From contig JAFGCB010000064.1 of the NCBI GenBank assembly GCA_016932855.1, forward strand, positions 1,767 to 65,766: DNA of 64,000 nt. Direction: 5' to 3'. A program made the position numbers and the translations under genes. This document shows, piece by piece, positions 5,527 through 57,928 of the stretch. Positions within the stretch are counted from its first letter, which is position 1. Each line of letters starts with the position of its first letter. A model generated the notes under the pieces. The model saw only the letters and a program-made list of their open reading frames with translations. It ran no database searches and was not told the origin of the DNA. This DNA comes from Candidatus Omnitrophota bacterium (lineage in GTDB: Bacteria; Omnitrophota; Gorgyraeia; Duberdicusellales; Duberdicusellaceae).

Positions 5527-5546
5527 TATTCAAAATATTTAATTCT

Positions 5547-9373: not shown

Positions 9374-9375
9374 TT

Positions 9376-14348: not shown

Positions 14349-15362
14349 ATGATTTTAAAAGACAAGGTTATTTTAGTAACTGGGGGTACTGGTTCATTTG
14401 GAAACAAGTTCGCGGAAATAGTATTAAATAGGCATCGTCCTAAGAAGCTTATTATTTTAAGCCGCGATGAGTATAAGCAGCATCGAATGGCCAAGACTTT
14501 TCCCGAGGAGCGGTATCCTATCCGTTATTTTCTGGGAGATATCCGCGACCGCTACCGGCTTTTTCGGGCTTTTGAAGGAGTCGACTATGTTGTTCATGCC
14601 GCGGCTCTAAAGCAGGTGCCGGCTTTAGAGTACAATCCCACCGAAGCGGTAAAGACAAACGTTATCGGCGCGGACAATATTGTTGACGCGGCGATTGATG
14701 CCGGCGTTAAAAAAGTCATTGTTATTTCTACCGATAAGGCGGTAAACCCGGCTAATCTCTATGGAGCGACCAAGCTGGTTGCTGAGAAAATATTCGTCGC
14801 TGCCAATGCTTATGGCGGAGGTTCGGTAAAGTTTTCGGTGGTGCGCTATGGTAATGTTATCGGCTCACGCGGAAGCGTAATACCTTTATATTTGCGCTTA
14901 AAACGCGAGGGTATAAAATTATTCCCCTTGACCAGCAAAGACATGAGCCGTTTCTGGATTACTTTGGACAAAGGAGTAGAGCTAGTGCTTAAAGCAATAG
15001 AAGAATCCGAAGGGGGTGAGATTTTTGTTCCTATGTTGCCCTCGATGCGGATTGTGGATTTGGCAAAAGCAATAGAGCCTTTATGTACGTTTAAGATAAT
15101 CGGCATACGGCCGGGAGAAAAGATTCATGAGACTTTAATATCAGAGACTGAAGCGCGCAAGGCTAAAATATTCGGCGACGCCTATGTTATTTTGCCGCAA
15201 TTTCTTGACTCTGAGAATGTCCGCACAAAATACGAGCAATATCCCTTTGTTCCCGAAGGGTTCAGTTATGAAAGTGATAAGAACCAGTGGTATCTTGAAG
15301 CCGAAGAATTATCAGAGATGTTCAGTCAGCCTCAGGTAGTCCCAGAAGTGGAGAAAGTCTAA
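14349..15362 (+). CDS. pseB: UDP-N-acetylglucosamine 4,6-dehydratase (inverting)
   Basis: ILVTGGTGSFG, YGATKLVAEK and the MSRFWITL motif characteristic of PseB/FlaA1; ~337 aa. Confidence 0.85.
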   Translation: MILKDKVILVTGGTGSFGNKFAEIVLNRHRPKKLIILSRDEYKQHRMAKTFPEERYPIRYFLGDIRDRYRLFRAFEGVDYVVHAAALKQVPALEYNPTEAVKTNVIGADNIVDAAIDAGVKKVIVISTDKAVNPANLYGATKLVAEKIFVAANAYGGGSVKFSVVRYGNVIGSRGSVIPLYLRLKREGIKLFPLTSKDMSRFWITLDKGVELVLKAIEESEGGEIFVPMLPSMRIVDLAKAIEPLCTFKIIGIRPGEKIHETLISETEARKAKIFGDAYVILPQFLDSENVRTKYEQYPFVPEGFSYESDKNQWYLEAEELSEMFSQPQVVPEVEKV

Positions 15363-16513
15363 TGAGGTATATACCTTACGGCCGACAATCTATAGGGCAG
15401 GATGATTTAAGGGAAGTTACAAAGGTTCTAAAATCCGATTGGATTACCCAGGGCCCGAAGATAAAGGAATTTGAAGAAGGGCTTTGCCGATATACGCAAG
15501 CAAAGTATGCAACAGCTGTATCTAGCGGAACCGCAGCCCTGCATATCGCGGCTTTAGCGGCAGGCATAAAACAAGGCGATGAGGTGATTACTTCGCCGAT
15601 AACTTTTGTCGCTTCGGCAAACGCAGCTTTGTATTGCGGGGCAAGGCCGGTCTTTGCCGATATAGAAAAGGCTACGGGCAATATTGATACTGAAAAGATA
15701 AGCCGCAAGATTACTAAGAAGACAAAGGCTATTATCCCGGTCCATTTCGCCGGCCACCCTTGTGATTTGGAGAAGATTAAGGCCATTGCCAAAAAGAATA
15801 ATCTCATTATCATTGAAGACGCTTGTCACGCCTTAGGGGCTGAATATAAGGGTATAAAAATTGGTTCTTGCCGCCATTCGGATATGGCTGTTTTGAGCTT
15901 TCATCCTGTAAAGGCTATCACGACCGGCGAGGGAGGGGCGGTACTTACCAACAGCAAAGATTATTACAAGAAACTTATTATGTTCAGAAACCACGGTCTT
16001 ACCAAGGAGAACCTTGAGGATACCTCTCAGGGAGATTGGTATTACGAGATGCAGTATTTGGGTTACAATTATCGGATAACCGATATTCAGACTTGCCTGG
16101 GCATATCTCAGTTAAAAAAACTGGATTCTTTCATCCGTAAGAGAAGAAAAATAGCCGCATTCTACGACCGGGCTTTTAAAGGTAATGGATATTTTGATAT
16201 TCCGGCAGAGAAAGAGTACGCTTTTTCGGCCTATCACCTCTATCCTATTATCTTGAAAAAGGTTTACGCCTGTAAACGCAAAGAATTTTTTTCGAAAATG
16301 AGAGCTAGAGGCTTTGGTGTCCAGGTGCATTATATCCCCGTCTACTTACAGCCATATTATAAACGCCTGGGATACGCGGCGGGTCTCTGCCCTCTTGCCG
16401 AGTCTTTTTATAATAGGCAGATAAGTATCCCTCTATATCCGTCTATGAGCGGTAAGGATATTAAATATGTAGTAAACACTCTTTTAGGGTTATGCAAGTC
16501 TGTTTTTAAATAA
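15362..16513 (+). CDS. pseC: UDP-4-amino-4,6-dideoxy-N-acetyl-beta-L-altrosamine transaminase
   Basis: Classic PseC N-terminus (IPYGRQSIGQDDL…VLKSDWITQGPK) and a DegT-fold body; TAATG 1-nt overlap with pseB. Confidence 0.85.
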   Translation: MRYIPYGRQSIGQDDLREVTKVLKSDWITQGPKIKEFEEGLCRYTQAKYATAVSSGTAALHIAALAAGIKQGDEVITSPITFVASANAALYCGARPVFADIEKATGNIDTEKISRKITKKTKAIIPVHFAGHPCDLEKIKAIAKKNNLIIIEDACHALGAEYKGIKIGSCRHSDMAVLSFHPVKAITTGEGGAVLTNSKDYYKKLIMFRNHGLTKENLEDTSQGDWYYEMQYLGYNYRITDIQTCLGISQLKKLDSFIRKRRKIAAFYDRAFKGNGYFDIPAEKEYAFSAYHLYPIILKKVYACKRKEFFSKMRARGFGVQVHYIPVYLQPYYKRLGYAAGLCPLAESFYNRQISIPLYPSMSGKDIKYVVNTLLGLCKSVFK

Positions 16514-16577
16514 AGGAAATTACGCAGACTGCACCGCTTGTAAAACTTAAGGAAATAAAAGCAGCAAGTAGAAGAGT

Positions 16578-17330
16578 ATGAATAAAAATAGCAATAAAAA
16601 AATCGTCTCCACGATAGAGGCTCGCTTTGCTTCAACAAGGCTTGCTGGCAAGACGCTTCTTGAGATTTGCGGTAAGCCTACCCTTGAACTTCTTATTGAA
16701 AGGCTTAGACGAAGCCGGTTTATAGACGAAATCGTAGTTGCGACAACAGTTAGTTCTGATTGCGACAGAATTGAATCTTTAGCCAAAAGGCTTAAAGTCG
16801 GGTGTTTCCGGGGCAGTGAAGAAGATGTTTTAGACCGCGTTCTTAAGGCTGCTAAGGCTTATAAAGCTGATATTATCGTGGAGATTACCGGCGATGAAAC
16901 CCTTATTGACCCGGTTATTGTGGATGAGACGATTGAGTCCTATCTTAAAAATGATTTTGACTATGTAAGTAACGTCTTAGACAGAAGATATCCCCGGGGT
17001 CTGGATACGCAAGTTTTCTCCGTAAGCGTCTTGGATGAAGTTTCCCGCTTGACAAATGCGCCGGCTGACAGAGAAAACGTCTCCCTCTATATTTACGAAC
17101 ATCCCCAGCATTATCGGTTAGGAAGCGTTAGGGCTCCGGAAGAATTAAATCACCCTGATTGGCGATGGACCTTGGATACTAAAGAAGACTTCGCGTTTCT
17201 TAAGACCGTTTACCAAGCTTTGTATCCTAAGAAAAAGGATTTTAGTTCTTACGACGTGCTAGCATTTCTTAAGCAGAAGCCCTGGGTTTTAGAGATTAAT
17301 AGCAAGATACAACAGAAGCCGGTTTATTAG
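16578..17330 (+). CDS. pseF: pseudaminic acid cytidylyltransferase-like (CTP_transf_3 family)
   Basis: STIEARFASTRLAGK N-terminal motif; ~250 aa; sits between pseC and pseG/I. Confidence 0.7.
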   Translation: MNKNSNKKIVSTIEARFASTRLAGKTLLEICGKPTLELLIERLRRSRFIDEIVVATTVSSDCDRIESLAKRLKVGCFRGSEEDVLDRVLKAAKAYKADIIVEITGDETLIDPVIVDETIESYLKNDFDYVSNVLDRRYPRGLDTQVFSVSVLDEVSRLTNAPADRENVSLYIYEHPQHYRLGSVRAPEELNHPDWRWTLDTKEDFAFLKTVYQALYPKKKDFSSYDVLAFLKQKPWVLEINSKIQQKPVY

Positions 17331-17332
17331 AT

Positions 17333-18334
17333 ATGAAGAAATACAAAGCCGCTGTTATTGGGTGCGGAAGAATCGGATTTAGGTTTGATAAAGACCCCCG
17401 GCGTAAATATATCGCTACCCATACCGGGGCGTATCATTCGGTAAAGGAGACTGATCTTGTGGCAGTCTGTGATAGTAATATTCAAAGGCTAAAAGAGTGC
17501 TGCGCTGTATTTAGGGATGCCCGTCCCTACCGCGACATTAATAAGATGTTGCAAAAGGAAAACCTTGATATTGTCAGTATCTGCACCCCGCCTCAGACGC
17601 ACTATACTGTTTTTAAGAGGGTGCTTGAGTTTGACCTTAAGGCTGTTTTTTGCGAGAAGCCTTTGGCTGGCAATATTTCTGAAGCCTTAAAGATGTTTCG
17701 TCTTTCTCGTAAAAAGAAAGTTATTTTACAGGTAGACCACCAGAGACGCTTTGATCCCCTTCATGCGCGGATACGTTCCTTTATTAAAACGCGCAGATTA
17801 GGGGGAGTCCAGCAGGTAAACGCCTATTACACGGCGGGTATATATAATACAGGTTCGCACCTCTTTGATTTACTTAGGTTTTTATTTGGCGATGTTTCCT
17901 GGGTTGAAGGGTTTCCAAGCAGAAATTCTTCCCATAAGAGGAAAGATCCTAATATAGACGGCATAATAAGATTTAAGAATGGTATTTTTGCGACCTTTCA
18001 GGCCTGTGACGCCCGGCGTTATCTTGTCTTTGAGGTCAACTGTTTCCTGGAGAACGGGCGAGTAGTTCTTAAGAATAGCGGATTTGAACTTGACACTTAT
18101 ATAGCGGGTAAAAGTAAATATTTCTCCGGATATAAAGAGCTGATTAAAACCAAGCCTTTTTGCAGGACAGACTATCGACGGGCCTTTATGGTGGGTGCGG
18201 TAAAGCATATTGTGGAATGCTTAAAAAAGAATAAGAAATCCGTCTCTTCAGGCCAAGACGGTTACCGGGCATTGCAAATCATTGAGGCTGCGGTATATTC
18301 AGCCAGACATAACGGTAGAAGAATAGGCCTATAG
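17333..18334 (+). CDS. Gfo/Idh/MocA-family NAD(P)-dependent oxidoreductase
   Basis: AAVIGCGRIG Rossmann start; ICTPPQTH and EKPLA motifs typical of the family; ~333 aa. Confidence 0.7.
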   Translation: MKKYKAAVIGCGRIGFRFDKDPRRKYIATHTGAYHSVKETDLVAVCDSNIQRLKECCAVFRDARPYRDINKMLQKENLDIVSICTPPQTHYTVFKRVLEFDLKAVFCEKPLAGNISEALKMFRLSRKKKVILQVDHQRRFDPLHARIRSFIKTRRLGGVQQVNAYYTAGIYNTGSHLFDLLRFLFGDVSWVEGFPSRNSSHKRKDPNIDGIIRFKNGIFATFQACDARRYLVFEVNCFLENGRVVLKNSGFELDTYIAGKSKYFSGYKELIKTKPFCRTDYRRAFMVGAVKHIVECLKKNKKSVSSGQDGYRALQIIEAAVYSARHNGRRIGL

Positions 18335-18350
18335 GCTTAAGGAGGATTAC

Positions 18351-19619
18351 ATGAGTAAGCTTGCCTTATTGGGCGGAGAGAAGATACGAAAAACCCCCTT
18401 TGTAAGTAATGCCTGTATAAAAGATGAGGAAAAAAAGAGAGTAAGCGCTGTTCTTGATAGCGGTATGCTTTCGGGGTTTGTTGCCAAGAAGGGAGATTTT
18501 TTTCTGGGCGGTGCGCAGTTAAGGGAATTCGAAGCGTTAGTGCAAGGCTATTTTAGTATCGAATATGCAATAGCTGTTAACTCGGCAACCGCCGGCCTTC
18601 ATATAGCAGTAGCTGCCTGCGGCATCGGCGCAGGTGATGAGGTTATAGTTACGCCTTACACAATGAGCGCCTCAGCTACGGCTATAGTTATGCAGAAAGC
18701 TATACCCGTTTTTTCCGATATAACCGAAAATAGACTCTGTCTTGACCCGGCCCGGATAGAGAAAAAGATAACTTCCCGCACCAAGGCTATCATGGTTGTG
18801 CATCTTTTCGGCTGGCCGGCAGAGATGCACGAAATTCTTAATATAGCCCGGAAGCATAATTTATTTGTTATTGAAGATTGTGCCCAGGCTCCCGGCGCCA
18901 AGTATAAGGACAAGTTCGTAGGCACTCTAGGCCATATCGGGGTCTTTAGCCTTAATCAGCATAAGACTATCACTTGCGGAGAAGGAGGATTCGCTATTAC
19001 TAAGAATAGCGATCTTGCTTTGCGGATGCAGCTTGTTCGTAATCACGGCGAGGCTGTTGTAGAAGATTTTGGCAGTGAAGAAAATTACGATATAGTCGGC
19101 TATAATTACCGGATGACTGAATTAGAGGCTGCTGTAAGCATAGGCCAATTCAGGCGTCTTGACTATTTAAACAGCCATAGGATTGAGTTAGCCGAGTATT
19201 TGATTGAGAAACTGTCAAAGTTTAAGGGCATAATACTTCCCCGGAAAGATGACAACACGAATGTTTATTTTGTTTTGCCGATGCGGTTAAAAAGAGAATT
19301 GGTTGGTGTACATAGGGATACCTTTGTAAAGGCTTTGATTGCCGAAGGTATACCTTTTGCAGCCGGTTATGTAAAACCCATTTATCTTGCTCCTTTGTAC
19401 CAGAAGACGCTTAAGGATAAAAGTGTTTATGATAAAGGTATTTGTCCTGTATGTGAACGGATGTATGAGGAGGAATTAATGCTGACCGGTGTATGTAAAT
19501 ATCCCCATACAAAAGAGGATATGGATTGTGTCGTTGAGGCATTTGATAAGATATACAACCATGCTGAAGAGCTTAAAAGATTTGAAGATGAGAGCTGTTG
19601 TTCTTACCGAAGGCGGTAA
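18351..19619 (+). CDS. DegT/DnrJ/EryC1/StrS-family PLP sugar aminotransferase
   Basis: NSATAGLHIAV…GDEVIVTPYT… and a conserved Lys region (SLNQHKTITCGEGG); ~420 aa. Confidence 0.75.
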   Translation: MSKLALLGGEKIRKTPFVSNACIKDEEKKRVSAVLDSGMLSGFVAKKGDFFLGGAQLREFEALVQGYFSIEYAIAVNSATAGLHIAVAACGIGAGDEVIVTPYTMSASATAIVMQKAIPVFSDITENRLCLDPARIEKKITSRTKAIMVVHLFGWPAEMHEILNIARKHNLFVIEDCAQAPGAKYKDKFVGTLGHIGVFSLNQHKTITCGEGGFAITKNSDLALRMQLVRNHGEAVVEDFGSEENYDIVGYNYRMTELEAAVSIGQFRRLDYLNSHRIELAEYLIEKLSKFKGIILPRKDDNTNVYFVLPMRLKRELVGVHRDTFVKALIAEGIPFAAGYVKPIYLAPLYQKTLKDKSVYDKGICPVCERMYEEELMLTGVCKYPHTKEDMDCVVEAFDKIYNHAEELKRFEDESCCSYRRR

Positions 19620-21036
19620 AGATATAGGGTTTGGTCATATCGGGCGTTGCCTTTCCTTGGCGCAGGCCTTAGAAGAAAGAGGGGTTTCTCTGCGATTTAT
19701 AGTAAGAGGAGATAGCTCTGTAGAGGGGATTCTAAAGAACAGAGAGTATGAGCTTTTTGATTGGCTTAAGGAGAAGGTTTTTGAGTATATCGATGATAGC
19801 ACCATAGTTATTGTTGATTCTTATTTCGGAGATTCTGATTTTTACCGTCGGCTCTCTGGGCATTGCGGTATTATTGTCTACATTGACGATTCTAGGCGAA
19901 GGGACTTTCCCCGGGGTATCGTGGTTAATCCTGCCGCTGGCGTTAAGAAGACATCCTACCCAAAGCAGGACGGCCTTACCTACTTGCTTGGCAGCGATTA
20001 CGCGCTTCTAAGAAAAGAATTCTGGCAGGTCCCTTCAAAGACAATCGGTCAGGATATACAAAAAGTCATGCTTACCTTTGGCGGCTCTGACGGGGTAAAT
20101 CTTTCCTCTGCGATTTTAAAGTTTTTTGCGGAGAAGTTTCCTTCTTGGAGTAAGAGCGTTGTCATCGGCTCGAGCTTTAGATCTTTTGAGCAGATTCAAG
20201 AAATAAAAGATGAAAAAACCGATCTTATAATTCATCCCGACGCTAACCAAATGCGTAATATCATGCTGGATTGTGATATTGCGATTTCAGGCGGAGGCCA
20301 GACGCTTTATGAGCTCGCCCGTATAGGTACACCCGCAATAGGAATATGTGTGGCTGATAATCAAATACAGAATCTAGAAGGACTTGCCAAGCAAGGTACT
20401 CTAGAGTATATCGGCTGGTACAATCACCCTTCTTTTATTCAAAAGCTGGAGCAAGCAATAGGTTGTTTAGAAGATATAAATAGGCGTAAGACTAGTTCAG
20501 AAGCAAGCCGAAAGATGATTGATGGTCAAGGGGCCCGGCGGGTCAGCCGAGAAGTTTTATCTCAGTTTTATAAGAAAGTTATTAATATTCGTCGAGCATC
20601 CGTACAAGATATGAATGATGTATTTTCTTTATCCAATGACCCTTTGGTGCGGTTAAATAGTTTTCATCCTGAGGTGATAAGTTGGGATACGCACCAGGAG
20701 TGGTTTCAGAGGAAGTTGAAAAGCAATACAACTTTTTTCTTTGTTGCCTATACCGAAGGGATTTTCTGCGGGCAGGTTCGGTTTGAAACAGAAAAAGAAG
20801 AGGCGCTTATAGGGATTAGTTTAAAACCTTTTCTCAGAGGATTAGGCTTAGGTTCTTATATAATTAATGAAGCAATTAGGCTGATTGAGGACTGTAACAG
20901 CATTAAAAGGGTTAAAGCTTTGATAAAAGGTGATAATACCGCTTCCATAAAAGCGTTCCAGAAAGCAGGTTTTGGGTTTCTTGCCGATCAACTAGTAGAA
21001 GGATATAAAGCCAGCGTATATATAAAAGAAATATAA
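19588..21036 (+). CDS. pseG/pseH: fused UDP-2,4-diacetamido-2,4,6-trideoxy-beta-L-altropyranose hydrolase / GNAT N-acetyltransferase (PseG-PseH fusion)
   Basis: The N-terminal ~300 aa begin MRAVVLTEGGKDIGFGHIGRCLSLAQAL, the PseG signature. The C-terminal ~170 aa look GNAT-like (…FFFVAYTEGIFCGQVRF…GLGLGSYIINEA…). The start at 19588 overlaps the upstream gene by 32 nt. The tracked ORF begins at 19489. Confidence 0.7.
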   Translation: MRAVVLTEGGKDIGFGHIGRCLSLAQALEERGVSLRFIVRGDSSVEGILKNREYELFDWLKEKVFEYIDDSTIVIVDSYFGDSDFYRRLSGHCGIIVYIDDSRRRDFPRGIVVNPAAGVKKTSYPKQDGLTYLLGSDYALLRKEFWQVPSKTIGQDIQKVMLTFGGSDGVNLSSAILKFFAEKFPSWSKSVVIGSSFRSFEQIQEIKDEKTDLIIHPDANQMRNIMLDCDIAISGGGQTLYELARIGTPAIGICVADNQIQNLEGLAKQGTLEYIGWYNHPSFIQKLEQAIGCLEDINRRKTSSEASRKMIDGQGARRVSREVLSQFYKKVINIRRASVQDMNDVFSLSNDPLVRLNSFHPEVISWDTHQEWFQRKLKSNTTFFFVAYTEGIFCGQVRFETEKEEALIGISLKPFLRGLGLGSYIINEAIRLIEDCNSIKRVKALIKGDNTASIKAFQKAGFGFLADQLVEGYKASVYIKEI

Positions 21037-21051
21037 TAAACATAAAAGTAT

Positions 21052-22080
21052 ATGAGACCTATACTAGGTAAAGGAGCTAGAGTTTTTGTTATTGCCGAAA
21101 TATCGGCTAACCACTGCCAGAGTTTTAACAGGGCGGTAAAATTAATTAAAGAGGCAAAGTCTTGCGGCGCTGATAGCGTTAAATTTCAGCTCTACACGCC
21201 TGATACTTTGACTTTGGATGTAAATAACAAATATTTTAAAATACGGCACTCCAAATGGAAAGGTCAGACCCTCTACCAGTTGTATAAGAAGGCCTATACT
21301 CCCTGGAGTTGGTTTAAAAGATTGAAAAAAATAGCCCAAGACCAAGGGCTTGTTTTCTTTGCTACCGCCTATGATAAAACCTCGGTTGATTTCTTGGAAA
21401 AATTGGGGGTAGATATACATAAAATAGCTTCTTTTGAGCTGGTGGATATTCCTTTAATCAAGTATATGGCCAAGACAAAGAAGCCTTTGCTTATCTCTAG
21501 CGGTATGGCAGCTCAGCTGGAAATAAAAGAAGCATTGACAGCAGCTAGAACATCCGGCGCAAAAGAAGTGGTATTGCTTAAATGCGTAAGCAGTTATCCT
21601 GCCAGTCCTTCGGAGATGAACCTGCGGACAATACCGCATATGCGCAAGGCCTTTAAGGTTGAGGTAGGTCTTTCCGACCATACCTTAGGCATAGCTGTTG
21701 CTGTTGCCGCGGTGAGTTTAGGAGCGGTTGTAGTGGAGAAGCATTTTACCTTATCCAGGAGTATCAAAAGTCCTGATAGTTTTTTCTCATTGGAGCCTTC
21801 AGAGTTTAAACAACTTGTAGAAAACTTAAGGGTTGTAGAGAAGGCCTTGGGCGAAGTTTCTTACAAACTTACGCCCGGTCAGAAAAAAAGCAAAGTCTTT
21901 CGGCGCTCTCTTTTCGTCACCAAAGATATTAAAAGGGGCTTATCTTTTAGCGAAGATAATATTAGGTCAGTACGTCCCAGTTACGGACTTAAGCCTAAGT
22001 ATCTTGAGGATATTTTAGGCAAAAAAGCCAGAAGAGCCCTTAAGCGAGGCAGCCCTCTTACGTTTAAAGATGTTGCCTAA
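21052..22080 (+). CDS. pseI: pseudaminic acid synthase (NeuB family)
   Basis: VFVIAEISANHCQSFNRAVKLIKEAKSCGADSVKFQLYTPDTLT… motif and C-terminal SAF domain; ~342 aa; directly downstream of pseGH. Confidence 0.8.
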   Translation: MRPILGKGARVFVIAEISANHCQSFNRAVKLIKEAKSCGADSVKFQLYTPDTLTLDVNNKYFKIRHSKWKGQTLYQLYKKAYTPWSWFKRLKKIAQDQGLVFFATAYDKTSVDFLEKLGVDIHKIASFELVDIPLIKYMAKTKKPLLISSGMAAQLEIKEALTAARTSGAKEVVLLKCVSSYPASPSEMNLRTIPHMRKAFKVEVGLSDHTLGIAVAVAAVSLGAVVVEKHFTLSRSIKSPDSFFSLEPSEFKQLVENLRVVEKALGEVSYKLTPGQKKSKVFRRSLFVTKDIKRGLSFSEDNIRSVRPSYGLKPKYLEDILGKKARRALKRGSPLTFKDVA

Positions 22081-50381: not shown

Positions 50382-50996
50382 ATGCTTAAGCGTTTATTTG
50401 ATATTATTTTTTCTCTGACAGGGCTCATCCTTACCTTCCCTTTGTTTCTTATTGTGGCTATATTTATAAAATTGGAGGATAAAGGCCCGGTTTTTTATCC
50501 CGGGATAAGGGTAGGAAAAGGAGGTAAGCATTTTAAGATGTTTAAATTTCGGACCATGGTGGTAAATGCCGATAAAATAGGGGGCCCTTCAACTGCTGAT
50601 GATGATCCCAGGCTTACCAGAGTGGGAAGACTTATCCGCAAATTCAAATTGGATGAAATCCCTCAGCTTATAAATGTTTTTTTAGGCCAGATGAGTTTTG
50701 TAGGACCCCGGCCGGAAGTTCCTTTTTATGTAGATATGTTTACCCAAGAGGAACGTAAGATTTTGAATGTCCGGCCCGGTATTACTGATTGGGCTTGTCT
50801 TTGGAATCCTGACGAAGGAGCGATTTTGGCCGGAAGTCCTGACCCGGAAAAGGCCTATATGGAGAAAATAAGGCCGACAAAGATTAAGCTTCAATTAAAA
50901 TATGTAAACGAGCATTCTTTTTTTACTGATTTAAAGATAATGTTTTTAACTTTAAAAACCATCATAACTAAACAGAAGACGGAAGTTGAAGTCTAA
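50382..50996 (+). CDS. initiating polyprenyl-phosphate phosphoglycosyltransferase (bacterial sugar transferase, PglC/WbaP C-terminal-domain type)
   Basis: ~204 aa with a single N-terminal TM helix. KRLFDIIFSL…, PGITDWA and …VGPRPE… motifs are diagnostic of the small monotopic PGT family. Confidence 0.75.
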   Translation: MLKRLFDIIFSLTGLILTFPLFLIVAIFIKLEDKGPVFYPGIRVGKGGKHFKMFKFRTMVVNADKIGGPSTADDDPRLTRVGRLIRKFKLDEIPQLINVFLGQMSFVGPRPEVPFYVDMFTQEERKILNVRPGITDWACLWNPDEGAILAGSPDPEKAYMEKIRPTKIKLQLKYVNEHSFFTDLKIMFLTLKTIITKQKTEVEV

Positions 50997-51046: not shown

Positions 51047-51087
51047 CAAATCCCAAACCCCAACAGGTTTTGGATTTGGGATTTTGA
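51047..51087 (+). repeat. second, imperfect copy of the ~40-nt caaatcccaaa(c/t)ccc-aac(a/g)gg-ttttggatttgggatttg hairpin element
   Basis: Near-identical to the 52157-52194 element. It lies in the 145-bp gap between the phosphoglycosyltransferase and E1-alpha genes and is followed by further gggatttgg/ggattttggattt reiterations up to ~51120. Confidence 0.4.
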
Positions 51088-51141
51088 ACTTGGGATTTGG
51101 TAGCATTTGGATTTTGGATTTAAGTCCTAGGGGATAGATGT

Positions 51142-52155
51142 ATGAGCATAATAGAATCTTGTTCCAAGCCGATTAATAAAGACTCAATAAAAGGCATTAG
51201 CCCTAAGCAGTTAGTTTCTATGTACGAAATGATGCTCAAGATTCGCCTTGTTGAGGATTACATAGGCCGGATGGTCGCTAGACGCGAGGTCAAGACGCCC
51301 TGTCATCTTTATCTAGGGCAGGAAGCGGTTGCCGTAGGTGTATGCGCCCATCTTAAGAAAGACGATTTTGTTTTTAGTACCCATCGTTCCCATGGCCATT
51401 ACTTGGCTAAGGGCGGGGATTTAAAGTCTCTTATGGCTGAGATTTTCGGGAAAGCTACCGGCTGTTGCCGGGGCAGGGGCGGCTCTATGCATATAGCCCA
51501 GCCGTCACTCGGTCTTCCCGGAAGTTCGGCAATAGTCGGCGGAACCATTCCCCTTGCGGTAGGCGCGGGCTTAGGGATTTCGTTGAAAAGTAGGCCTAAT
51601 GTTGCGGTTGCTTTTTTCGGTGACGGAGCCACCAACGAAGGCATTTTCTATGAATCTCTTAACTTCGCACGTTTAAAGAATTTGCCGGTTATCTTTATCT
51701 GCGAAAATAATTTTTATTCTACTCATATGCATATTTCAAAGATTCAGGCGGTTTCCCAGCTTTATAAGATAGGAGAGTTATTTGATATCCCCTCTTTTCA
51801 GGTAAACGGCTATAACATTATTGAGGTATATACTCTTGCTAAGAAAACCATAGAGACGGCTAAAAAAGGCAAGGGGCCTGTATTTGTCGAGGCTTTTACC
51901 TATCGTTGGAGAGGCCATGTCGGGCCTAACTGGGATTTGGATACAAACATCCGGGCGAAAGAGGAAGTCTACTGGTGGGTCAAGAACTGTACTATAAAAA
52001 GACTCGAAAGGCTTTTATTAGGGGAAAAGATACTTAATAGTAAAAAAAGAAAAGATATCTTTAGGAAGCTACATGCTGAAATTCGCCAGGCAATAAAGTT
52101 TGCCAAAGAAAGCCCTTATCCCGATAAAAAGGAACTAAAAGACGTATATGCATAG
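51142..52155 (+). CDS. thiamine-diphosphate-dependent dehydrogenase E1 component, alpha subunit-like
   Basis: ThDP-binding motif GDGATNEG…N and …YRWRGH…; ~337 aa. Confidence 0.7.
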   Translation: MSIIESCSKPINKDSIKGISPKQLVSMYEMMLKIRLVEDYIGRMVARREVKTPCHLYLGQEAVAVGVCAHLKKDDFVFSTHRSHGHYLAKGGDLKSLMAEIFGKATGCCRGRGGSMHIAQPSLGLPGSSAIVGGTIPLAVGAGLGISLKSRPNVAVAFFGDGATNEGIFYESLNFARLKNLPVIFICENNFYSTHMHISKIQAVSQLYKIGELFDIPSFQVNGYNIIEVYTLAKKTIETAKKGKGPVFVEAFTYRWRGHVGPNWDLDTNIRAKEEVYWWVKNCTIKRLERLLLGEKILNSKKRKDIFRKLHAEIRQAIKFAKESPYPDKKELKDVYA

Positions 52156-52156
52156 C

Positions 52157-52194
52157 AAATCCCAAATCCCAACGGGTTTTGGATTTGGGATTTG
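52157..52194 (+). terminator. stem-loop (14-bp perfect stem) immediately 3' of the E1-alpha gene; possible intrinsic terminator/attenuator or RNA-processing site
   Basis: caaatcccaaatcc (52157-52170) pairs perfectly with ggatttgggatttg (52181-52194); the loop is caacgggtttt. There is no clear U-tract, so function is uncertain. Confidence 0.35.
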
Positions 52195-52209
52195 ATAAAT
52201 AGAGTAAAT

Positions 52210-53211
52210 ATGAAAAGAAAACTTACTTACGCAGAAGCTATTAATGAAGCTCTGCATCAATTGATGCAAAAAGATAAAAATGTCATTGTTATCGGTCAGG
52301 GCGTGACCAGTCCCTGGTATGTCGGTGCTACCACGGTCGGTCTTCTTGATAAATTCGGCGAGAAAAGAATTATTGATACTCCGGTATCCGAGAGTGCCAT
52401 AACCGGTGTAGCCGGGGGCTGCAGTCTTACGGGAGCTAGGCCGATACTTGTCCACCCCCGAATGGATTTTATGTATTATGCTTTTGACCAGATTATAAAT
52501 CATATGGCAGGTTGGCATTTTATGTTCGGTGGTAAAGTCAATATGCCTGTAGTCTTCTGGGCGATTATCAATCGGGGAGGAGAACAGGCTGCTCAGCATT
52601 CTCAAGCCTTGCAAGGGCTATTTATGCATATTCCCGGCCTAAAACTGGTTATGCCTTCAACTGCCTACGACGCAAAGGGTCTTTTAGTAAGCGCGGTAGA
52701 GGATAATAGCCCGGTTATGTATATTGATGACAGATGGCTTTATAGCCAAAAAGAGCATGTGCCAGAAGATTTATATAGAGTTTCTATTGGTAAATCGCAA
52801 ATAAGGCGTAAGGGTAAAGATTTAACTATTATTGCCAGCTCTTATATGACTCTTAAGGCCTTAGAAGCCTGTGAAGTTCTTGAAAACGAAGGCATAGAGG
52901 CTGAGGTTATTGATTTAAGAAGCATTAAACCCCTTGATACAGAAACGCTTTGTAAGTCGGTTAAAAAAACCGGCCGGCTGGTGATTGCCGACGGAGGCTG
53001 GAGGACTTGTGGATTAGCCGCGGAGATTTCAGCGCAGATTTCAGAGAAAGTTTTTAATTATTTGAAGAAGCCCATTGTAAGAGTAACTTTGCCTGATGCT
53101 CCTGCGCCGGCAAGTTCTGCCTTAGAGAGGGCTTATTACCCGACAGAAAAGAACATCATCAAAGCCGCCAAATCCCTATGCAATAAAAATTCGGTTCGCC
53201 GAAAAAAATAA
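52210..53211 (+). CDS. E1 component beta subunit-like (transketolase-like pyrimidine-binding + C-terminal domain)
   Basis: …TPVSESAITGVAGG… Pyr domain and C-terminal transketolase_C-like region. The ATG at 52210 was preferred over the TTG-initiated tracked start at 52192, which lies inside a hairpin. Confidence 0.65.
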   Translation: MKRKLTYAEAINEALHQLMQKDKNVIVIGQGVTSPWYVGATTVGLLDKFGEKRIIDTPVSESAITGVAGGCSLTGARPILVHPRMDFMYYAFDQIINHMAGWHFMFGGKVNMPVVFWAIINRGGEQAAQHSQALQGLFMHIPGLKLVMPSTAYDAKGLLVSAVEDNSPVMYIDDRWLYSQKEHVPEDLYRVSIGKSQIRRKGKDLTIIASSYMTLKALEACEVLENEGIEAEVIDLRSIKPLDTETLCKSVKKTGRLVIADGGWRTCGLAAEISAQISEKVFNYLKKPIVRVTLPDAPAPASSALERAYYPTEKNIIKAAKSLCNKNSVRRKK

Positions 53212-53238: not shown

Positions 53239-53294
53239 CCCCTACAAGAATCGGCGAAATATAAAATATGTAGGGGCCGGGCTTGCCCCGGCCC
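53239..53294 (+). terminator. nested inverted repeats / GC-rich hairpin downstream of the E1-beta gene
   Basis: cccctaca (53239-53246) pairs with tgtagggg (53269-53276). It overlaps a GC hairpin: gggccggg (53274-53281), loop cttgc, cccggccc (53287-53294), followed by an A/T-rich tract. Confidence 0.35.
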
Positions 53295-53317
53295 ATTAAA
53301 ACAATAATATTAAATAC

Positions 53318-54433
53318 ATGAAATATAAAGTCCCTTTCGTAAATTACCCCCTTCAATACCGTAACCTAAAAACAGAGATTGATTCTGCTGTCCAGTCTGT
53401 TTTAGAAAGAGGCGATTTAATATTACGTCAGGATGTCGAAGATTTTGAAAAAGACCTGGCTTCTTTTTTAGGAGTAAAATTCGCCGTCGGCCTTGATGAC
53501 GGCACTAACGCCATAATTTTTGCTTTAAAGGCTGCCGGAGTAGGCCCCGGCGATGAAGTAATTACCGTAAGCCACACTTTTGTGGCCTCTGTAGCTTCTA
53601 TTGTTCACTGTGGTGCAACCCCGGTGCTTATAGATGTAAAAGAATACGATTATCTTATGGATATGGATAAATTAGAAAAGGTTATAACTCCCAAGACAAA
53701 GGCAGTTATACCTGTGCATCTTAATGGTCGAGGCTGCGACATGGAAAAATTAATGTTTATAGCAAAAAAACACAATTTAGCTGTTGTTGAGGATACAGCC
53801 CAAGCCTTAGGGGCAAAGTTTAAAGGTAAGATGATAGGTTCTTTTGGCCTAGCTTCAACTTACAGCTTTTATCCGGCAAAAATCTTAGGAGGCGTAGGTG
53901 ACGCAGGAGCCCTTGCTACAAACGATAAAGAGGTTTATGAGCAGGCCATTCTTTTACGCGATCACGGCCAGAAGACTAAGACCGACATAGTCTGCTACGG
54001 CTTTACCGGTCGTTTGGACAATTTACATGCGGCGATCCTGAATGTTAAGTTTAAGCGTCTGCCTGGGTGGATTGAGCGTCGCAGAGAAATTGCCGGGATT
54101 TACCAGGTGGGCCTAAGCGACTTAGATCAAGTTGGTCTTCCGCCGGCCCCGGATAGCGACAGCCGTTTCTTTGATGTTTATCAAAATTATGTTTTGCGGG
54201 CTCAAGAAAGAGATGAGCTTGCTCAGTTTTTGAAAGAAAACGGGGTTGAGATTTTGATAAAAGACCCGGTTGCCCTTCATCATCAAAAAGGCTTAAAGCT
54301 TGAGAAGTTTAAATTACCCGTATCTGAGAAATTGGCTCAAGAGGTGATTTCTCTTCCCATGTATCCTGAGCTTAGCAACGAGCAGGTTCGCTACGCAATA
54401 GATTGCGTTAAGAGGTTTTATTCAAACGGGTAA
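53318..54433 (+). CDS. DegT/DnrJ/EryC1/StrS-family PLP sugar aminotransferase (4th in window)
   Basis: DegT fold; conserved segments …DDGTNAIIFALKAAGVGPGDEVI… and …STYSFYPAKILGGVGDAGAL…. Confidence 0.7.
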   Translation: MKYKVPFVNYPLQYRNLKTEIDSAVQSVLERGDLILRQDVEDFEKDLASFLGVKFAVGLDDGTNAIIFALKAAGVGPGDEVITVSHTFVASVASIVHCGATPVLIDVKEYDYLMDMDKLEKVITPKTKAVIPVHLNGRGCDMEKLMFIAKKHNLAVVEDTAQALGAKFKGKMIGSFGLASTYSFYPAKILGGVGDAGALATNDKEVYEQAILLRDHGQKTKTDIVCYGFTGRLDNLHAAILNVKFKRLPGWIERRREIAGIYQVGLSDLDQVGLPPAPDSDSRFFDVYQNYVLRAQERDELAQFLKENGVEILIKDPVALHHQKGLKLEKFKLPVSEKLAQEVISLPMYPELSNEQVRYAIDCVKRFYSNG

Positions 54434-54473: not shown

Positions 54474-55679
54474 ATGTTTACCCCTAGTCAGAAAAAACAG
54501 TTTATGGTCTATTTCGGGATTTTTCTAATGGCGCTAGTTATCCATTTCTGCTTTTGGTTTGGCTATTATCAAGGCCGGCCTGGGACCTCATCTGATTTTG
54601 TGCATCAATTGGATCCAAACGCAAGACAATTAGTGGAATATCTCAGGGGAAATATTGTCTTGTCGGCGATTTCTTTTGAGCACCCCTTAGGCGTAATTGC
54701 CCATTTTAACTGGCTTATTTTCGTCAGCCTTATGTATTTTTTCTTCGGTTTGGGTAATGTAACAGCGATTATCGTTTTTCAAATAATAGCCGTTTCTCTG
54801 GTAACAGTGCTATTCTTCAAGATTACACTTAGACATTACCGTTCAAGAGTTATTGCCTTTGTTTTTACTTTTATTTCAATGGTTTTTATTGATAATATAT
54901 CCTGGAACCTCTGGGCTTCTACCGAATGTTTTTACCGCATCCTATTCTTCGTTTTTTATTATTATTTGCTTCAACTTTTCTTTATTAAGAAAAATTATAA
55001 ATACTTTTCTTTAGTTTTTTTCATTTCATTCTTCATTCTTGTTTTTACGAGGATTGACACGATTATTTTATATTTGCCTTTCTATATCTTATTAATCGGC
55101 TTAGGTGTAAAGTATTTGCGTCTTCGAATAAAATTAATAATCGCGGCAGCTGTCATAGGGCTTTTTTCCTGGATAATCCTTTCTTTTGATTTGTCGGCGG
55201 CCAGGATGTTGACCCTGGGCAGCGTGGAGAAGTTCTACAAAGACGGGATTGTAGTGCATTTCTATAGATTCATCGAACCTTTTGATAATACTATGAGCGG
55301 CAACTACTTATATCTGTTTTCACGGTGGATTAAGCTCTGGTTCTACCGGGCCTATGAATTTTTCAACCTAATGCCTTATCGATGGTCGAATATCCACAAA
55401 TTGCAGTATGCCTTTTTTATGATTATATTTTATTTTTTTTCTTTCTTTGCCTTGCTGAGGATGTTCAGGAATAAGGATTATCACTTTCTTTTCTTTTTTC
55501 TTGTGTATGTTTCAAGCGCTATAATGCATATTTTTCTATTTGGAGTAACCGCTGATTTGAGGACTACTTTTACTCATGTCCCTTTTTTGATTTTAACTGC
55601 CGGTTACGGCTGCGATTATTTATTTTCACTTTTTAAAGATAAGAAAGATCGTCCTAACGGCGACTTTTACAGAAGCTGA
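54474..55679 (+). CDS. hypothetical polytopic membrane protein (possible membrane glycosyltransferase/polymerase)
   Basis: ~401 aa, rich in F/Y/L with ~10 or more predicted TM helices. No confident family. Confidence 0.3.
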   Translation: MFTPSQKKQFMVYFGIFLMALVIHFCFWFGYYQGRPGTSSDFVHQLDPNARQLVEYLRGNIVLSAISFEHPLGVIAHFNWLIFVSLMYFFFGLGNVTAIIVFQIIAVSLVTVLFFKITLRHYRSRVIAFVFTFISMVFIDNISWNLWASTECFYRILFFVFYYYLLQLFFIKKNYKYFSLVFFISFFILVFTRIDTIILYLPFYILLIGLGVKYLRLRIKLIIAAAVIGLFSWIILSFDLSAARMLTLGSVEKFYKDGIVVHFYRFIEPFDNTMSGNYLYLFSRWIKLWFYRAYEFFNLMPYRWSNIHKLQYAFFMIIFYFFSFFALLRMFRNKDYHFLFFFLVYVSSAIMHIFLFGVTADLRTTFTHVPFLILTAGYGCDYLFSLFKDKKDRPNGDFYRS

Positions 55680-55697: not shown

Positions 55698-56381
55698 ATG
55701 CAGGCAGTAATACTTGCAGGAGGCAGGGGCTTGCGTCTTAAGCCTTTTACCGATACAGCGCCTAAAGTTATGGCTCTTGTTAAAGGAAAGCCTTTTCTTG
55801 AGCATCTTTTAAGATATATAAGGTCTTTTTCGATAAAAGATATCCTTTTGCTTACGGGATATTTGGGAAAACAGATAGAGGTTTATTTTGGGAATGGAGA
55901 GCAGTTAGGCCTTAGCATTGAGTATGTGAACGAGGCCAAGCCTTTAGGTACAGGCGGCGCATTAAAAAATGCGGAAGATAAATTAAGGGGTGAGTTTTTA
56001 CTTTTTAACGGGGACACCTATTTGCCTATAGACTATAAAGAAGTTATTGAGTCTTTTCAGCGGCGGGCTGCTTCCTGCATGATTGTTGCTCATAATAATT
56101 CCGACAAGATATTCGTTAATAATATGCGTGTGGGTGAGGATAGCCGCGTTCTTGCCTATAGCAAGACAGACACCCAGGCAATGACTGAGGTGGACGCGGG
56201 CCTTACGTTGTTTAAAAGAGAAGCGATAGATTACATTCCGGAAAAAAAGCCGTGTTCTTTCGAAAGAGAGGCCTTGCCACGGCTTATTGAGAAAGGTTAT
56301 GTTTCAGCCTTTATCACCGGCCAGCGCTTTTATGATATGGGCACTCCTGGAGGACTAAAAGATATGGAGGATATTTTGTAA
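55698..56381 (+). CDS. hddC: D-glycero-D-manno-heptose-1-phosphate guanylyltransferase-like nucleotidyltransferase
   Basis: AVILAGGRGLRLKPFT…PKVMA… signature; ~227 aa; immediately precedes the GHMP kinase and SIS isomerase genes. Confidence 0.6.
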   Translation: MQAVILAGGRGLRLKPFTDTAPKVMALVKGKPFLEHLLRYIRSFSIKDILLLTGYLGKQIEVYFGNGEQLGLSIEYVNEAKPLGTGGALKNAEDKLRGEFLLFNGDTYLPIDYKEVIESFQRRAASCMIVAHNNSDKIFVNNMRVGEDSRVLAYSKTDTQAMTEVDAGLTLFKREAIDYIPEKKPCSFEREALPRLIEKGYVSAFITGQRFYDMGTPGGLKDMEDIL

Positions 56382-57349
56382 TGATTATAACTCGTACTCC
56401 TTTTAGAGTAAGTTTTATGGGCGGCGGGAGCGATTTCAGGGATTTCTATAATAAGAACGGATATGGAGCCGTGGTCAGCGCCGCAATTGACAGATATATG
56501 TACATAGTCATCCATCCTTACTTTCATGATAAGATACGCATAAAATATTCTAAGACAGAAGATGTAGAGCGCCTTGCCGATATTAATCATCCTTTGGTAA
56601 GAGAATGCTTGAAAAAGGTTGAAGTTGAGAAAGGGATTGAGATCGCCAGTTTCGCCGATGTGCCGGCAGGGACTGGTCTAGGTTCTTCCAGCGCCTTTAC
56701 CGTAGGGCTATTGCACGCTTTGTATGTCTATAAAGGTAAGAGCGTATCGAAAGAGAAGCTCGCTCAAGAGGCCTGTGAGATAGAAATAGATATACTGGGC
56801 GAGCCTATAGGCAAGCAGGATCAATACGCCTCTGCTTACGGCAATATTAATTATTTTAAGTTCAAAAAAGATGAGACAGTAGAAGTTTGTCCTATTCCAG
56901 TAAAGCAGGAAGTAGAAGATAAGCTTAAGCGGGATTTCTGCCTTTATTATACAGGCCGGATGAGACAGGCCAGGGATATTCTTATTGAGCAGAAAAACAA
57001 TATTGCTGATAGGGATAAATTTGTGGTTTTAAGAAAGATGCTTGGCTTAACGCAAGAGCTTAAGGAAATTTTCCAGAAAGAAGAGATTGACCGCATAGGT
57101 TCTTTTTTACACAGAGGATGGCTTTACAAGAAAGAGCTAGCCGAAGGCATTTCTAATTCGGGGGTTGATGAATTTTACAATAAATCCTTGCAGTACGGCG
57201 CTGTAGGCGGAAAGCTCCTGGGTGCCGGAGGAGGAGGCTTTTTACTCTTATATTCTTTAGACCATGCAAGCTTAAAGAAAAAATTAGGCTGCAAGACTTT
57301 GCCTTTTAATATAGATAAAGAAGGAACAAAAATATTATTTAATGGATAA
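56381..57349 (+). CDS. hddA: GHMP-family sugar kinase (D-glycero-D-manno-heptose-7-phosphate kinase-like)
   Basis: TPFRVSFMGGGSDF…, PAGTGLGSSSAF and GAGGGGFLLL motifs; ~322 aa. Confidence 0.65.
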   Translation: MIITRTPFRVSFMGGGSDFRDFYNKNGYGAVVSAAIDRYMYIVIHPYFHDKIRIKYSKTEDVERLADINHPLVRECLKKVEVEKGIEIASFADVPAGTGLGSSSAFTVGLLHALYVYKGKSVSKEKLAQEACEIEIDILGEPIGKQDQYASAYGNINYFKFKKDETVEVCPIPVKQEVEDKLKRDFCLYYTGRMRQARDILIEQKNNIADRDKFVVLRKMLGLTQELKEIFQKEEIDRIGSFLHRGWLYKKELAEGISNSGVDEFYNKSLQYGAVGGKLLGAGGGGFLLLYSLDHASLKKKLGCKTLPFNIDKEGTKILFNG

Positions 57350-57361
57350 AGGAGGTTTTCG

Positions 57362-57928
57362 TTGATGCCGGCAGAATTCTTGAAAAAATATTTCGCGGAC
57401 ATGCAAAGAATTTTCCAGGCTTTCAGTGTTGAGGAATTTGCTAAGTTTATCTCGGAATTGAAAGATGCCTACGAGAAGGGTTTGTCTATTTTCGTCTTCG
57501 GTAACGGTGGCAGCGGCTTAAACGCTTCTCATTTTGCTTCGGACTTAAACAAAGAAGCCAGCCTCGGCAAACCTAAGCGGTTTAAGGTGACCTGTCTTAA
57601 CGACAGCCCCGCGCTTATTTCTTCTTACGCTAATGATATCTCCTATGCCGATATATTCTCAGAGCAGCTAAAGAATTTTATGAAGGAAAAAGACCTTGTC
57701 ATCGGGATTTCCGGCAGCGGCAATTCCGAAAATGTCATAAGAGCGATAGACTACGCCAACGAAGAAGGCGCAAGGACTCTGGGTATATGCGGCTTTAAAG
57801 GAGGCAGGTTGAAGAAAGTCGCCCTAAACTGTCTAGTCATTGACAGCGATGATATGCAGAAGGTTGAAGATGCGCATCTTATAATTCTTCATTGCGCTGT
57901 GCAGTGGTTGAAACTTAACTTACCTTAA
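57362..57928 (+). CDS. gmhA: SIS-domain sedoheptulose-7-phosphate isomerase
   Basis: ~188 aa single SIS domain with …VFGNGGSG…ASHFASDL… and …GISGSGNS… motifs. Confidence 0.7.
   Translation: MMPAEFLKKYFADMQRIFQAFSVEEFAKFISELKDAYEKGLSIFVFGNGGSGLNASHFASDLNKEASLGKPKRFKVTCLNDSPALISSYANDISYADIFSEQLKNFMKEKDLVIGISGSGNSENVIRAIDYANEEGARTLGICGFKGGRLKKVALNCLVIDSDDMQKVEDAHLIILHCAVQWLKLNLP

Follow-up and report, generated by a model that had tools for sequence, protein, structure and literature searches.

We describe a pair of genes encoding the α and β subunits of a thiamine diphosphate (ThDP)-dependent E1 enzyme, located at positions 51142–53211 of a 64,000-nucleotide stretch of DNA from a Candidatus Omnitrophota bacterium (assembly GCA_016932855.1, contig JAFGCB010000064.1, positions 1,767 to 65,766; hereafter, the window), which is a single long glycan locus read from one strand. 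Comparison of the pair and its neighbors with those of its relatives suggests that it encodes a stand-alone α2β2 enzyme that would no longer work with a lipoyl-E2 partner and would act as a carboligase that adds a carbon branch to a nucleotide sugar, as proposed for AviB1/AviB2. C-branching by the E1 pair, taken alone, seems probable to us; the full mechanism developed below we hold with about even confidence, and the step in which the adjoining aminotransferase (AT) would act on the ketone of the new branch is somewhat more doubtful.

The E1α gene (51142–52155, plus strand) encodes a 337-residue ThDP-dependent protein that matches Pfam E1_dh (PF00676) with E = 1.4e-65. The E1β gene, taken as the longest open reading frame (ORF), spans 52192–53211 on the same strand and encodes 339 residues with matches to Transket_pyr (1.2e-32) and Transketolase_C (4.7e-40); both ORFs are intact. 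The TTG at 52192 that opens this longest ORF falls within a 14-bp hairpin, and alignments of the product to solved E1β chains start at residue 10. Because of these two features, the ATG at 52210 is the likelier start, and the E1β gene probably extends from 52210 to 53211. Against the NCBIfam equivalog model for pyruvate dehydrogenase (PDH) E1α, TIGR03182, E1α scored 318 bits and did not reach the cut-off of 394. E1β passed the subfamily model NF006667 (336 bits, cut-off 321) and scored below the cut-off of the equivalog model NF008854 (312 bits, cut-off 454). Human PDH E1α (1ni4) was among the best solved relatives of E1α, at 167 bits, and the Geobacillus stearothermophilus E1β chains 1w85_B/3duf_B matched E1β at 254 bits. 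Judged by these matches, the pair has the structural features of the heterotetrameric ThDP-dependent 2-oxo-acid dehydrogenase E1 superfamily, in both its α and its β chain.

A gene for a small monotopic phosphoglycosyltransferase (PGT) of the PglC type lies directly upstream of E1α (50382–50996, plus strand, 204 residues; Pfam Bac_transf, E = 5e-60), and a gene for a DegT-family AT dependent on pyridoxal phosphate lies directly downstream of E1β (53318–54433, plus strand, 371 residues; DegT_DnrJ_EryC1, E = 5e-102), giving the order PGT–E1α–E1β–AT. A Pfam scan of the non-overlapping window ORFs of at least 150 residues, covering 51 kb before the pair and 10.8 kb after it, revealed no E2, E3, or lipoyl domain, and blastp with Streptococcus E2, E3, and LplA references gave no match in the same 64 kb. 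The original prediction for this DNA, which placed a ThDP-dependent E1α/β pair exactly from the E1α start to the E1β stop, right after the initiating PGT and with no E2/E3 partners nearby, agrees with these results. Its further description of the pair as lying among sugar aminotransferases holds for the single AT that adjoins it; the other three in the window (at 2599, 15362, and 18351) are 33–49 kb away, in nonulosonic-acid modules. That prediction had also called for a phylogenetic comparison with other E1 enzymes and had named adjacent E2/E3 genes in a normal PDH or acetoin operon as evidence that would speak against it.

For this comparison, we gathered 176 loci around relatives of E1α, referred to below by their L numbers, and labeled the neighboring genes by blastp and Pfam. 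The 120 best database matches to E1α were 53–72% identical to it. Scans of genome and metagenome contigs with E1α served mainly as a control set, as their best-listed matches were mostly canonical E2-linked E1s of 38–45% identity. Such E1s usually have an E2 gene directly downstream, often with E3 and LplA in addition, as in the acoABCL-type operons of Streptococcus. In a distance-based, midpoint-rooted neighbor-joining tree of 107 E1α sequences, which carries no bootstrap or other support values, the window, all sampled top matches, and L001–L012, L014, and L086–L090 formed one clade, separate from the E2-linked E1s; among the contig-scan matches listed, only L006–L012, L014, L094, L095, L097–L100, L102, and L105 belonged to it. 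An E2 neighbor was present in 0 of the 23 classified clade loci, the 68 comparison loci having been selected for possession of one, and every clade locus classified here was a glycan locus. The pair thus fell apart from the E2-linked E1s in the tree, and adjacent E2/E3 genes in a normal PDH or acetoin operon were seen neither in the window nor beside any clade member. Deeper branches of the clade also lie in glycan loci, with the order SDR–E1α–E1β–DegT or SDR (SDR, short-chain dehydrogenase/reductase; L006, L012, L014) or radical-SAM/SPASM–E1α–E1β–GT2 (L008–L010). A plasmid collection yielded canonical E1s only, of at most 42% identity, and no cultured organism with the gene cassette described below.

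The residues expected for ThDP binding and decarboxylation are intact. In E1α, the ThDP/Mg motif GDG-X(24–27)-NN (G160-D161-G162 ... N189-N190) is present, as it is invariably in the clade and in E2-linked E1s, and His259 corresponds to H271α of the G. stearothermophilus enzyme. E1β retains Glu67 (E59β), Phe93 (F85β), and His136 (H128β). In the G. stearothermophilus enzyme, E59β functions in cofactor activation and H128β contacts pyruvate, and roles for H271α and F85β are described as well (PMC2663715). We scored a position as clade-specific if it was conserved in at least 85% of the clade and present in at most 15% of E2-linked E1s. In E1α, Thr194 stands in place of the inner-loop residue I206α, and the clade-specific residues V260, G261, and D265 come just after the catalytic histidine, at the start of the outer loop that recognizes the lipoyl group. 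Clade-specific positions of E1β include H88 and R90 near F93, I125, I126, and R128 just before H136 (R128 by eight residues), and W108, R181, W182, K246, and Y316. Among these, the arginines R90, R128, and R181 do not vary within the clade, and E2-linked E1s have them rarely or never. As far as sequence position can tell, the clade-specific changes cluster at the active-site entrance, which appears to be remodeled, and the three arginines would suit an anionic acceptor such as the nucleotide diphosphate of a nucleotide sugar.

Other substitutions affect positions characteristic of E2-linked enzymes. The GEDV motif of E1β reads GQGV, with E28/D29 of the G. stearothermophilus chain replaced by Q36/G37, and the clade-specific K292 stands where 81% of E2-linked E1s have an acidic residue, equivalent to G. 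stearothermophilus E285, which we take to contact the E2 binding domain. Of four acidic residues taken to form the "proton wire" between the two active sites of the G. stearothermophilus enzyme, βE28 and βE88 are Q36 and Y96 here, and the equivalents of E59 and D91 are kept; the changes at Q36, G37, and Y96 may alter half-of-the-sites behavior. If the pair were the usual E1 of a pyruvate or acetoin dehydrogenase, sitting in a glycan locus by chance and working with an E2 and E3 encoded elsewhere, for example to supply acetyl-CoA, its high similarity to PDH E1, the passing of NF006667 by E1β, and the retention of all catalytic residues, including both histidines, would be expected. This explanation is nevertheless highly improbable in our view, given a clade without any E2-neighbored locus when more distant E1s usually have one, an E1α below the PDH equivalog cut-off, the GQGV and K292 substitutions, and a surrounding gene order that is conserved across metagenome-assembled genomes (MAGs) with different taxonomic labels.

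To define this gene order, we compared the core of the clade, consisting of 16 distinct loci with usable flanks: the window and 15 relatives whose E1α proteins are 46–72% identical. An orthologous AT adjoins the E1 pair, or is separated from it by one methyltransferase (MT) gene, in 13 of the 16 loci (the window and 12 of the 15 others), and these ATs are 46–77% identical to the window AT. PGTs with 48–72% identity to the window PGT are next to or near the pair in most core loci. A PglF-type dehydratase, by which we mean a membrane protein of ~620 residues with the CoA_binding_3 plus Polysacc_synt_2 architecture of classical UDP-N-acetylglucosamine (UDP-GlcNAc) 4,6-dehydratases, occurs in 10 of the 15 other loci. 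The window order, PGT–E1α–E1β–AT, is the minimal form of this cassette. It is extended to PGT–E1α–E1β–AT–MT in L001, L094, and L007, to PGT–E1α–E1β–AT–MT–PglF in L004/5, L086, and L088/9, and to PGT–E1α–E1β–AT–PglF in L097 and L098 (with the PGT ~1.4 kb upstream in L098). The genes are rearranged as MT–PGT–E1α–E1β–AT–PglF in L087 and as MT–E1α–E1β–MT–AT–PGT in L093. Two loci have an SDR gene on the E1α side, L090 as SDR–E1α–E1β–AT–GNAT–AT–WbqC and L095 as SDR ... E1α–E1β–AT. These SDRs, and that of L091, are GalE/UXS/RmlB-like. The SDR gene immediately precedes E1α in L090 and L091 and is ~1 kb away from it, on the upstream side, in L095; the L091 protein resembles GalE, Pal, RmlB, and UXS, all of which have a 4-keto intermediate. 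The E1 pair is firmly tied to the PGT and to a single orthogroup of ATs, and the order of the PGT, AT, AKR (aldo-keto reductase, below), and PglF genes is conserved over MAGs labeled Omnitrophota, Acidiferrales (Acidobacteriota), Terriglobia, and Dehalococcoidales.

Four loci (L091, L092, L174, and L176) have an AKR gene and no cassette AT. The gene orders are SDR–E1α–E1β–AKR–MT–MT in L091, PGT–AKR–MT–E1α–E1β–PglF in L092 and in L174, and MT–PGT–AKR–E1α–E1β–PglF in L176, a Terriglobia MAG. Orthologs of this AKR are encoded in L086, L091, L092, L174, L175, and L176; the window has an AT instead. The AT and the AKR thus alternate, and we conclude that one or the other of these two carbonyl-consuming enzymes follows the ThDP enzyme. 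In L086 (4135–15828), two PGTs and two tailoring modules accompany a single E1 pair and a single PglF, in the arrangement [MT, MT, PGT2, AKR] ... [PGT, E1α, E1β, AT, MT, PglF], which suggests that two alternative branched sugars are made from one intermediate.

We also performed a reciprocal test, using the L092 AKR as the query and picking three orthologs (59–66% identity) solely on identity and on the length of available DNA. All three (L174, L175, and L176) sit in a cassette of this kind. L175 (8934–10242; GCA_041643025.1, JBGGHK010000081.1) has the order MT–PGT–AKR–split transketolase–AT–PglF, in which a split transketolase-like ThDP enzyme, consisting of a Transketolase_N protein of 269 residues and a Transket_pyr protein of 168 residues without the C-terminal domain, takes the E1 position. 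The adjoining AT is 64% identical to the window AT. This arrangement looks like a non-orthologous replacement of the E1 pair, and the replacing enzyme might install a glycolyl rather than an acetyl branch. Because of the swap in L175 and the outcome of the AKR-based search, the constant partner in the cassette is a ThDP enzyme, of either the E1 or the transketolase type.

The cassette methyltransferases divide in a similar manner. Group A (39–53% mutual identity) goes with the AT, and group B (44–56%) goes with the AKR, being found also in L093, which has an AT and no AKR. In L090, a GNAT acetyltransferase gene follows the AT gene. The amine made by the AT therefore has tailoring enzymes of its own, as judged from the group A methyltransferases that accompany the AT and from the GNAT protein of L090.

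The alternation of AT and AKR would fit a free acyloin ketone equally well, and E1-type enzymes form acyloins as side reactions. The E1 pair and the AT could on that basis make a small amine or alcohol that is not a sugar, from acetoin or another acyloin by amination or by AKR reduction, for later attachment to the glycan. We regard this as very unlikely. The relatives of the AT act on sugar or cyclitol ketones, the best named ones being nucleotide-sugar aminotransferases, the close linkage with a dehydratase and a PGT that both handle UDP-sugars argues for a nucleotide sugar, and the cassette has no enzyme for activation or transfer of a small amine.

The best solved relatives of the window AT were 7b0d (316 bits), QdtB (262 bits), DesV (260 bits), 3uwc (250 bits), and WbpE (235 bits). 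PseC scored 116 bits, and PglE was not among the solved matches at E ≤ 1e-30. The named enzymes among the best matches are of the 3-keto-sugar aminotransferase lineage. By these scores, the window AT belongs with them and is not a C-4 aminotransferase of the PglE type, and for that reason the cassette is not simply a bacillosamine pathway. The best solved relative of the window PGT was PglC (8g1n, 100 bits), and the PGT is predicted to start the repeat unit by loading a modified UDP-sugar onto undecaprenyl phosphate. Like the PglF–PglE–PglD–PglC pathway of Campylobacter and Neisseria, the cassettes of the window's relatives include a PglF-type membrane dehydratase, a DegT-family AT, and a small PglC-type PGT, and in both systems a modified N-acetylhexosamine (HexNAc) would be the first sugar on the lipid carrier. 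Unlike that pathway, the cassette lacks PglD, has an AT of the QdtB/DesV/WbpE rather than the PglE/PseC lineage, and has a ThDP enzyme between the dehydratase and the AT.

The resemblance to the bacillosamine pathway, with E1α/β in the place of the missing PglD and no hexapeptide acetyltransferase inside the cassettes, raises the possibility of a role as acyl donor for the E1 pair. In that case, the AT would make a 4-amino sugar in the way PglE does, and the E1 pair would replace PglD by passing an acetyl or other acyl group from acyl-ThDP, formed from a 2-oxo acid, to the amine or, in AKR cassettes, to a hydroxyl. We consider this improbable, and we rejected a PglFEDC pathway with E1 as the acetyl donor, because the AT does not resemble PglE or PseC, separate enzymes are there to tailor the amine (a group A methyltransferase in most loci and GNAT in L090), and formation of acyl-ThDP from pyruvate needs an oxidant, for which no partner with a lipoyl group, a flavin, or an Fe-S cluster is encoded in the cassettes. 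Moreover, 4-ketoreductases are normally SDRs rather than AKRs, and replacement of E1 by a transketolase fits C–C bond chemistry. Two kinds of product had originally been suggested for the pair. The comparative evidence favors the first, a C-branched sugar; the second, an acetyl- or lactyl-type donor, is less likely because the AT is of the 3-keto-sugar lineage and not PglE-like.

It is also conceivable that branching and amination are separate steps, with the E1 pair adding a C-branch and the AT or AKR acting on a C-3 or C-4 ring ketone, either of that sugar or of a different one. A 4-C-acetyl sugar aminated on the ring would be one possible outcome, and a pair of distinct sugars another. The window AT does group with the ring C-3 aminotransferases QdtB, DesV, and WbpE, several further sugar pathways are encoded in the window, and AKR-family enzymes also serve as ring ketoreductases in deoxysugar pathways. 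We still think separate steps unlikely. No 3,4-ketoisomerase, 2,3-dehydratase, or C-3 oxidase that could make a second ring ketone was found in any cassette inspected, and the AT orthogroup stays with the ThDP enzyme even when the latter is swapped for a transketolase, as in L175. Our preferred reading is that the AT is predicted to aminate the ketone made in the E1 step, which best explains its presence because the branch ketone would be the only carbonyl remaining after addition at C-4 and because the AT takes the place of the AKR.

Stand-alone E1α/β pairs have been implicated in sugar branching before. For AviB1/B2 and for Plm8/9 (= Pau11/12), genetics implicates the pair in attaching a pyruvate-derived two-carbon branch to C-4 of nucleotide diphosphate (NDP)-4-keto sugars (PMC4802897, PMC4753412). 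In paulomycin biosynthesis, Pau11/Pau12, homologs of AviB1/B2, are the proposed installers of the acetyl branch, and Pau7 is an AKR characterized as reducing this C-4' acetyl branch to hydroxyethyl (PMC4753412). Like the window pair, these Streptomyces systems are two-gene E1 pairs without E2/E3 in a sugar-biosynthesis cluster, and the chemistry proposed for them, addition of an acetyl branch from pyruvate at C-4, is the same. They stand beside an enzyme that produces an NDP-4-keto sugar, as do the pairs in many of the window's relatives but not the pair in the window itself. Pau7 is matched by the AKR of the sister cassettes, a likeness by description rather than by sequence. The PglF–E1α/β–AKR cassettes echo the logic of paulomycin biosynthesis with a UDP-HexNAc precursor, and this parallel leads to the C-branching interpretation. 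The systems differ in that the window pair and its relatives lie in surface-glycan loci of uncultivated bacteria, whereas the AviB and Pau pairs lie in antibiotic clusters; in that the predicted substrate here is derived from UDP-HexNAc, compared to a dTDP-deoxyhexose or a UDP-pentose; and in that the window pair shares an operon with a PglC-type PGT and a DegT AT, predicting an aminated branch. AviB1/B2-type pairs are themselves supported by genetics only.

Biochemical evidence exists for a different ThDP enzyme. YerE, from yersiniose synthesis for the O-antigen of Yersinia pseudotuberculosis, adds a pyruvate-derived two-carbon unit to C-4 of a nucleotide 4-keto sugar, its branching reaction has been shown biochemically, and its product goes to a surface polysaccharide (cited in PMC4753412). 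In contrast to an E1α/β heterotetramer, YerE consists of one chain, a flavoprotein related in type to acetolactate synthase; it acts on a CDP-3,6-dideoxy sugar and is not followed by an aminotransferase. At the other end of the comparison, the E1 α2β2 enzymes of PDH and acetoin dehydrogenase (G. stearothermophilus 1W85, human 1NI4) share with the window pair the fold, domain order, and catalytic residues, with scores of 167–254 bits. The window pair is unlike them in its lack of E2/E3, its separate clade, its E1α score below the equivalog cut-off, the threonine for the inner-loop isoleucine, the altered start of the outer loop, and the arginines and histidine gained by E1β near active-site motifs. 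Our literature search, outside of which much subscription literature lay, found no report that links an E1 pair with a PglC-type PGT and a DegT AT and nothing relevant on acetoin dehydrogenase in O-antigen clusters.

These comparisons suggest the following pathway, in which the use of pyruvate as donor, the nature of the acceptor, the site attacked, and the action of the AT on the branch ketone are inferred. First, a 4,6-dehydratase, of the PglF type in the relatives, would turn UDP-GlcNAc into UDP-2-acetamido-2,6-dideoxy-hexos-4-ulose. The E1α/β enzyme would then decarboxylate pyruvate to hydroxyethylidene-ThDP, whose carbanion would attack the C-4 ketone to give a 4-C-acetyl tertiary-alcohol sugar nucleotide (+44 Da). 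In the third step, the DegT AT would aminate the side-chain ketone to a 4-C-(1-aminoethyl) branch; in the sister cassettes, the AKR would reduce the branch to 1-hydroxyethyl. A dedicated methyltransferase, often encoded in either kind of cassette, may act on the product. Finally, the PglC-type PGT would move the branched sugar-1-phosphate to undecaprenyl phosphate, making it the reducing-end sugar of a surface glycan.

Several observations weigh against this pathway. The placement of the clade-specific arginines is judged by sequence position alone, and both catalytic histidines for lipoyl acetylation are kept, so the sequence does not prove that lipoyl chemistry has been lost. The likeness to AviB1/B2, Pau11/12, and AlmDI/DII is one of description and not of sequence, so common ancestry with the window pair is a conjecture, and all clade members seen are from uncultivated bacteria. 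The closest solved relatives of the AT aminate ring C-3 ketones, and for this lineage to aminate a branch ketone outside the ring is without direct precedent and would be new; the nearest case, present in the list of AT matches, is 5k8b, a Kdo8N transaminase of the DegT family whose target is an exocyclic carbonyl. We found no report of a 1-aminoethyl-branched sugar in a search that much subscription literature lay outside. In the window itself, no PglF-type gene, methyltransferase of either orthogroup, or AKR adjoins the cassette. The only Polysacc_synt_2 enzyme of the window is a PseB-like UDP-GlcNAc 4,6-dehydratase encoded 36 kb upstream of the E1 pair (14349–15362, plus strand; E = 8e-96), with 36% identity to the PglF of L004. 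It is a possible source of the 4-keto acceptor, but more probably belongs to a pseudaminic-acid module.

The E1 genes are accompanied by repeated sequence elements. A 37-nt palindromic element, AAATCCCAAAYCCCAACRGGTTTTGGATTTGGGATTT, occurs in two copies only in the window, where 0 would be expected by chance. Copy 1 (51048–51084, plus strand) forms a hairpin 58 nt upstream of the E1α start, and copy 2 (52157–52193, plus strand) lies between the E1α stop and the probable E1β start, with a 14-bp stem (−20.2 kcal/mol, z = −3.5) and no T-run after it. Degenerate half-sites of the element are present at 51107–51121. The two copies could be a small repeat element or could act in the processing or stability of mRNA. 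A GC-rich 8-bp hairpin, GGGGCCGGGCTTGCCCCGGCCC, lies at 53274–53295 in the AT-rich spacer that separates E1β from the AT gene, again with no T-run following, and the 86 nt around it fold no better than shuffled sequence (z = −1.0).

Downstream of the AT, a 401-residue polytopic membrane protein without a Pfam match (54474–55679) occupies the slot that a methyltransferase or PglF takes in relatives, and a GDP-heptose module (HddC, HddA, and GmhA, 55698–57928) comes next. The window also encodes flippases, Wzy-like proteins, glycosyltransferases, and an acyl module with FkbH and acyl carrier protein (ACP) components. In this module (28465–33817), an 836-residue fusion of an Antibiotic_NAT (aminoglycoside-3-N-acetyltransferase-like) and an FkbH-type domain is followed by a MaoC dehydratase, an SDR whose tail is ACP-like by eye (with no Pfam match), and a C-methyltransferase-like protein, which together look like a carrier-protein-based acyl pathway that N-acylates an amino sugar. 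We discarded a link between this module and the E1 pair, given the 20-kb distance and the lack of conserved association in relatives, and we discarded a phosphonate-type decarboxylase plus aminotransferase, as in aminoethylphosphonate synthesis, given the wrong fold family and the lack of a phosphoenolpyruvate mutase. Two nonulosonic-acid modules (2599–10362 and 14349–22080) each have their own NeuB (3714 and 21052), CMP-transferase (8633 and 16578), and DegT protein (2599 and 15362), and the second contains the PseB-like gene, a PseC-like gene, and a fused PseG-like/GNAT protein at 19489. There are six radical-SAM genes, five with B12-binding domains (12931, 43555, 45018, 58661, and 61227) and one with SPASM (60110). 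The number of cobalamin-dependent radical-SAM genes is unusually high for one glycan locus and may point to sugars being tailored by C-methylation or other radical reactions; similar genes recur in L001, L006, L009, L090, L091, and L174.

Taken to its full extent, the comparison leads to a broader proposal, which we offer as tentative: a widespread cassette of a 4,6-dehydratase, an E1- or transketolase-type carboligase, a DegT AT, and a PglC-type PGT may make 2-acetamido-2,6-dideoxy-4-C-(1-aminoethyl)-hexose, often N-methylated or N-acetylated, or a 1-hydroxyethyl counterpart in the AKR version. In Omnitrophota, Acidobacteriota, Dehalococcoidia, and deltaproteobacterial lineages, this would be the first sugar to be joined to the lipid carrier when surface glycans are made, and the E1 enzyme would have traded recognition of lipoyl-E2 for that of a nucleotide sugar via a few β-chain arginine substitutions. 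If this is true, the product would represent an undescribed class of branched amino sugar, and should the AT act on the ketone of the branch, the known range of bacterial monosaccharides would grow, as would that of substrates for DegT aminotransferases and PglC-type PGTs. E1-type sugar branching has so far been a matter of Streptomyces genetics only, and a compact cassette with a commercially accessible precursor, UDP-GlcNAc, would make the reaction testable in vitro. Annotation of these proteins as pyruvate dehydrogenase E1 by genome pipelines inflates the apparent central-metabolic capacity of MAGs from anaerobes, Omnitrophota among them, and conceals a probable enzyme of glycan tailoring. 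The clade would offer a natural experiment in how a component of a multienzyme complex becomes a free-standing carboligase.

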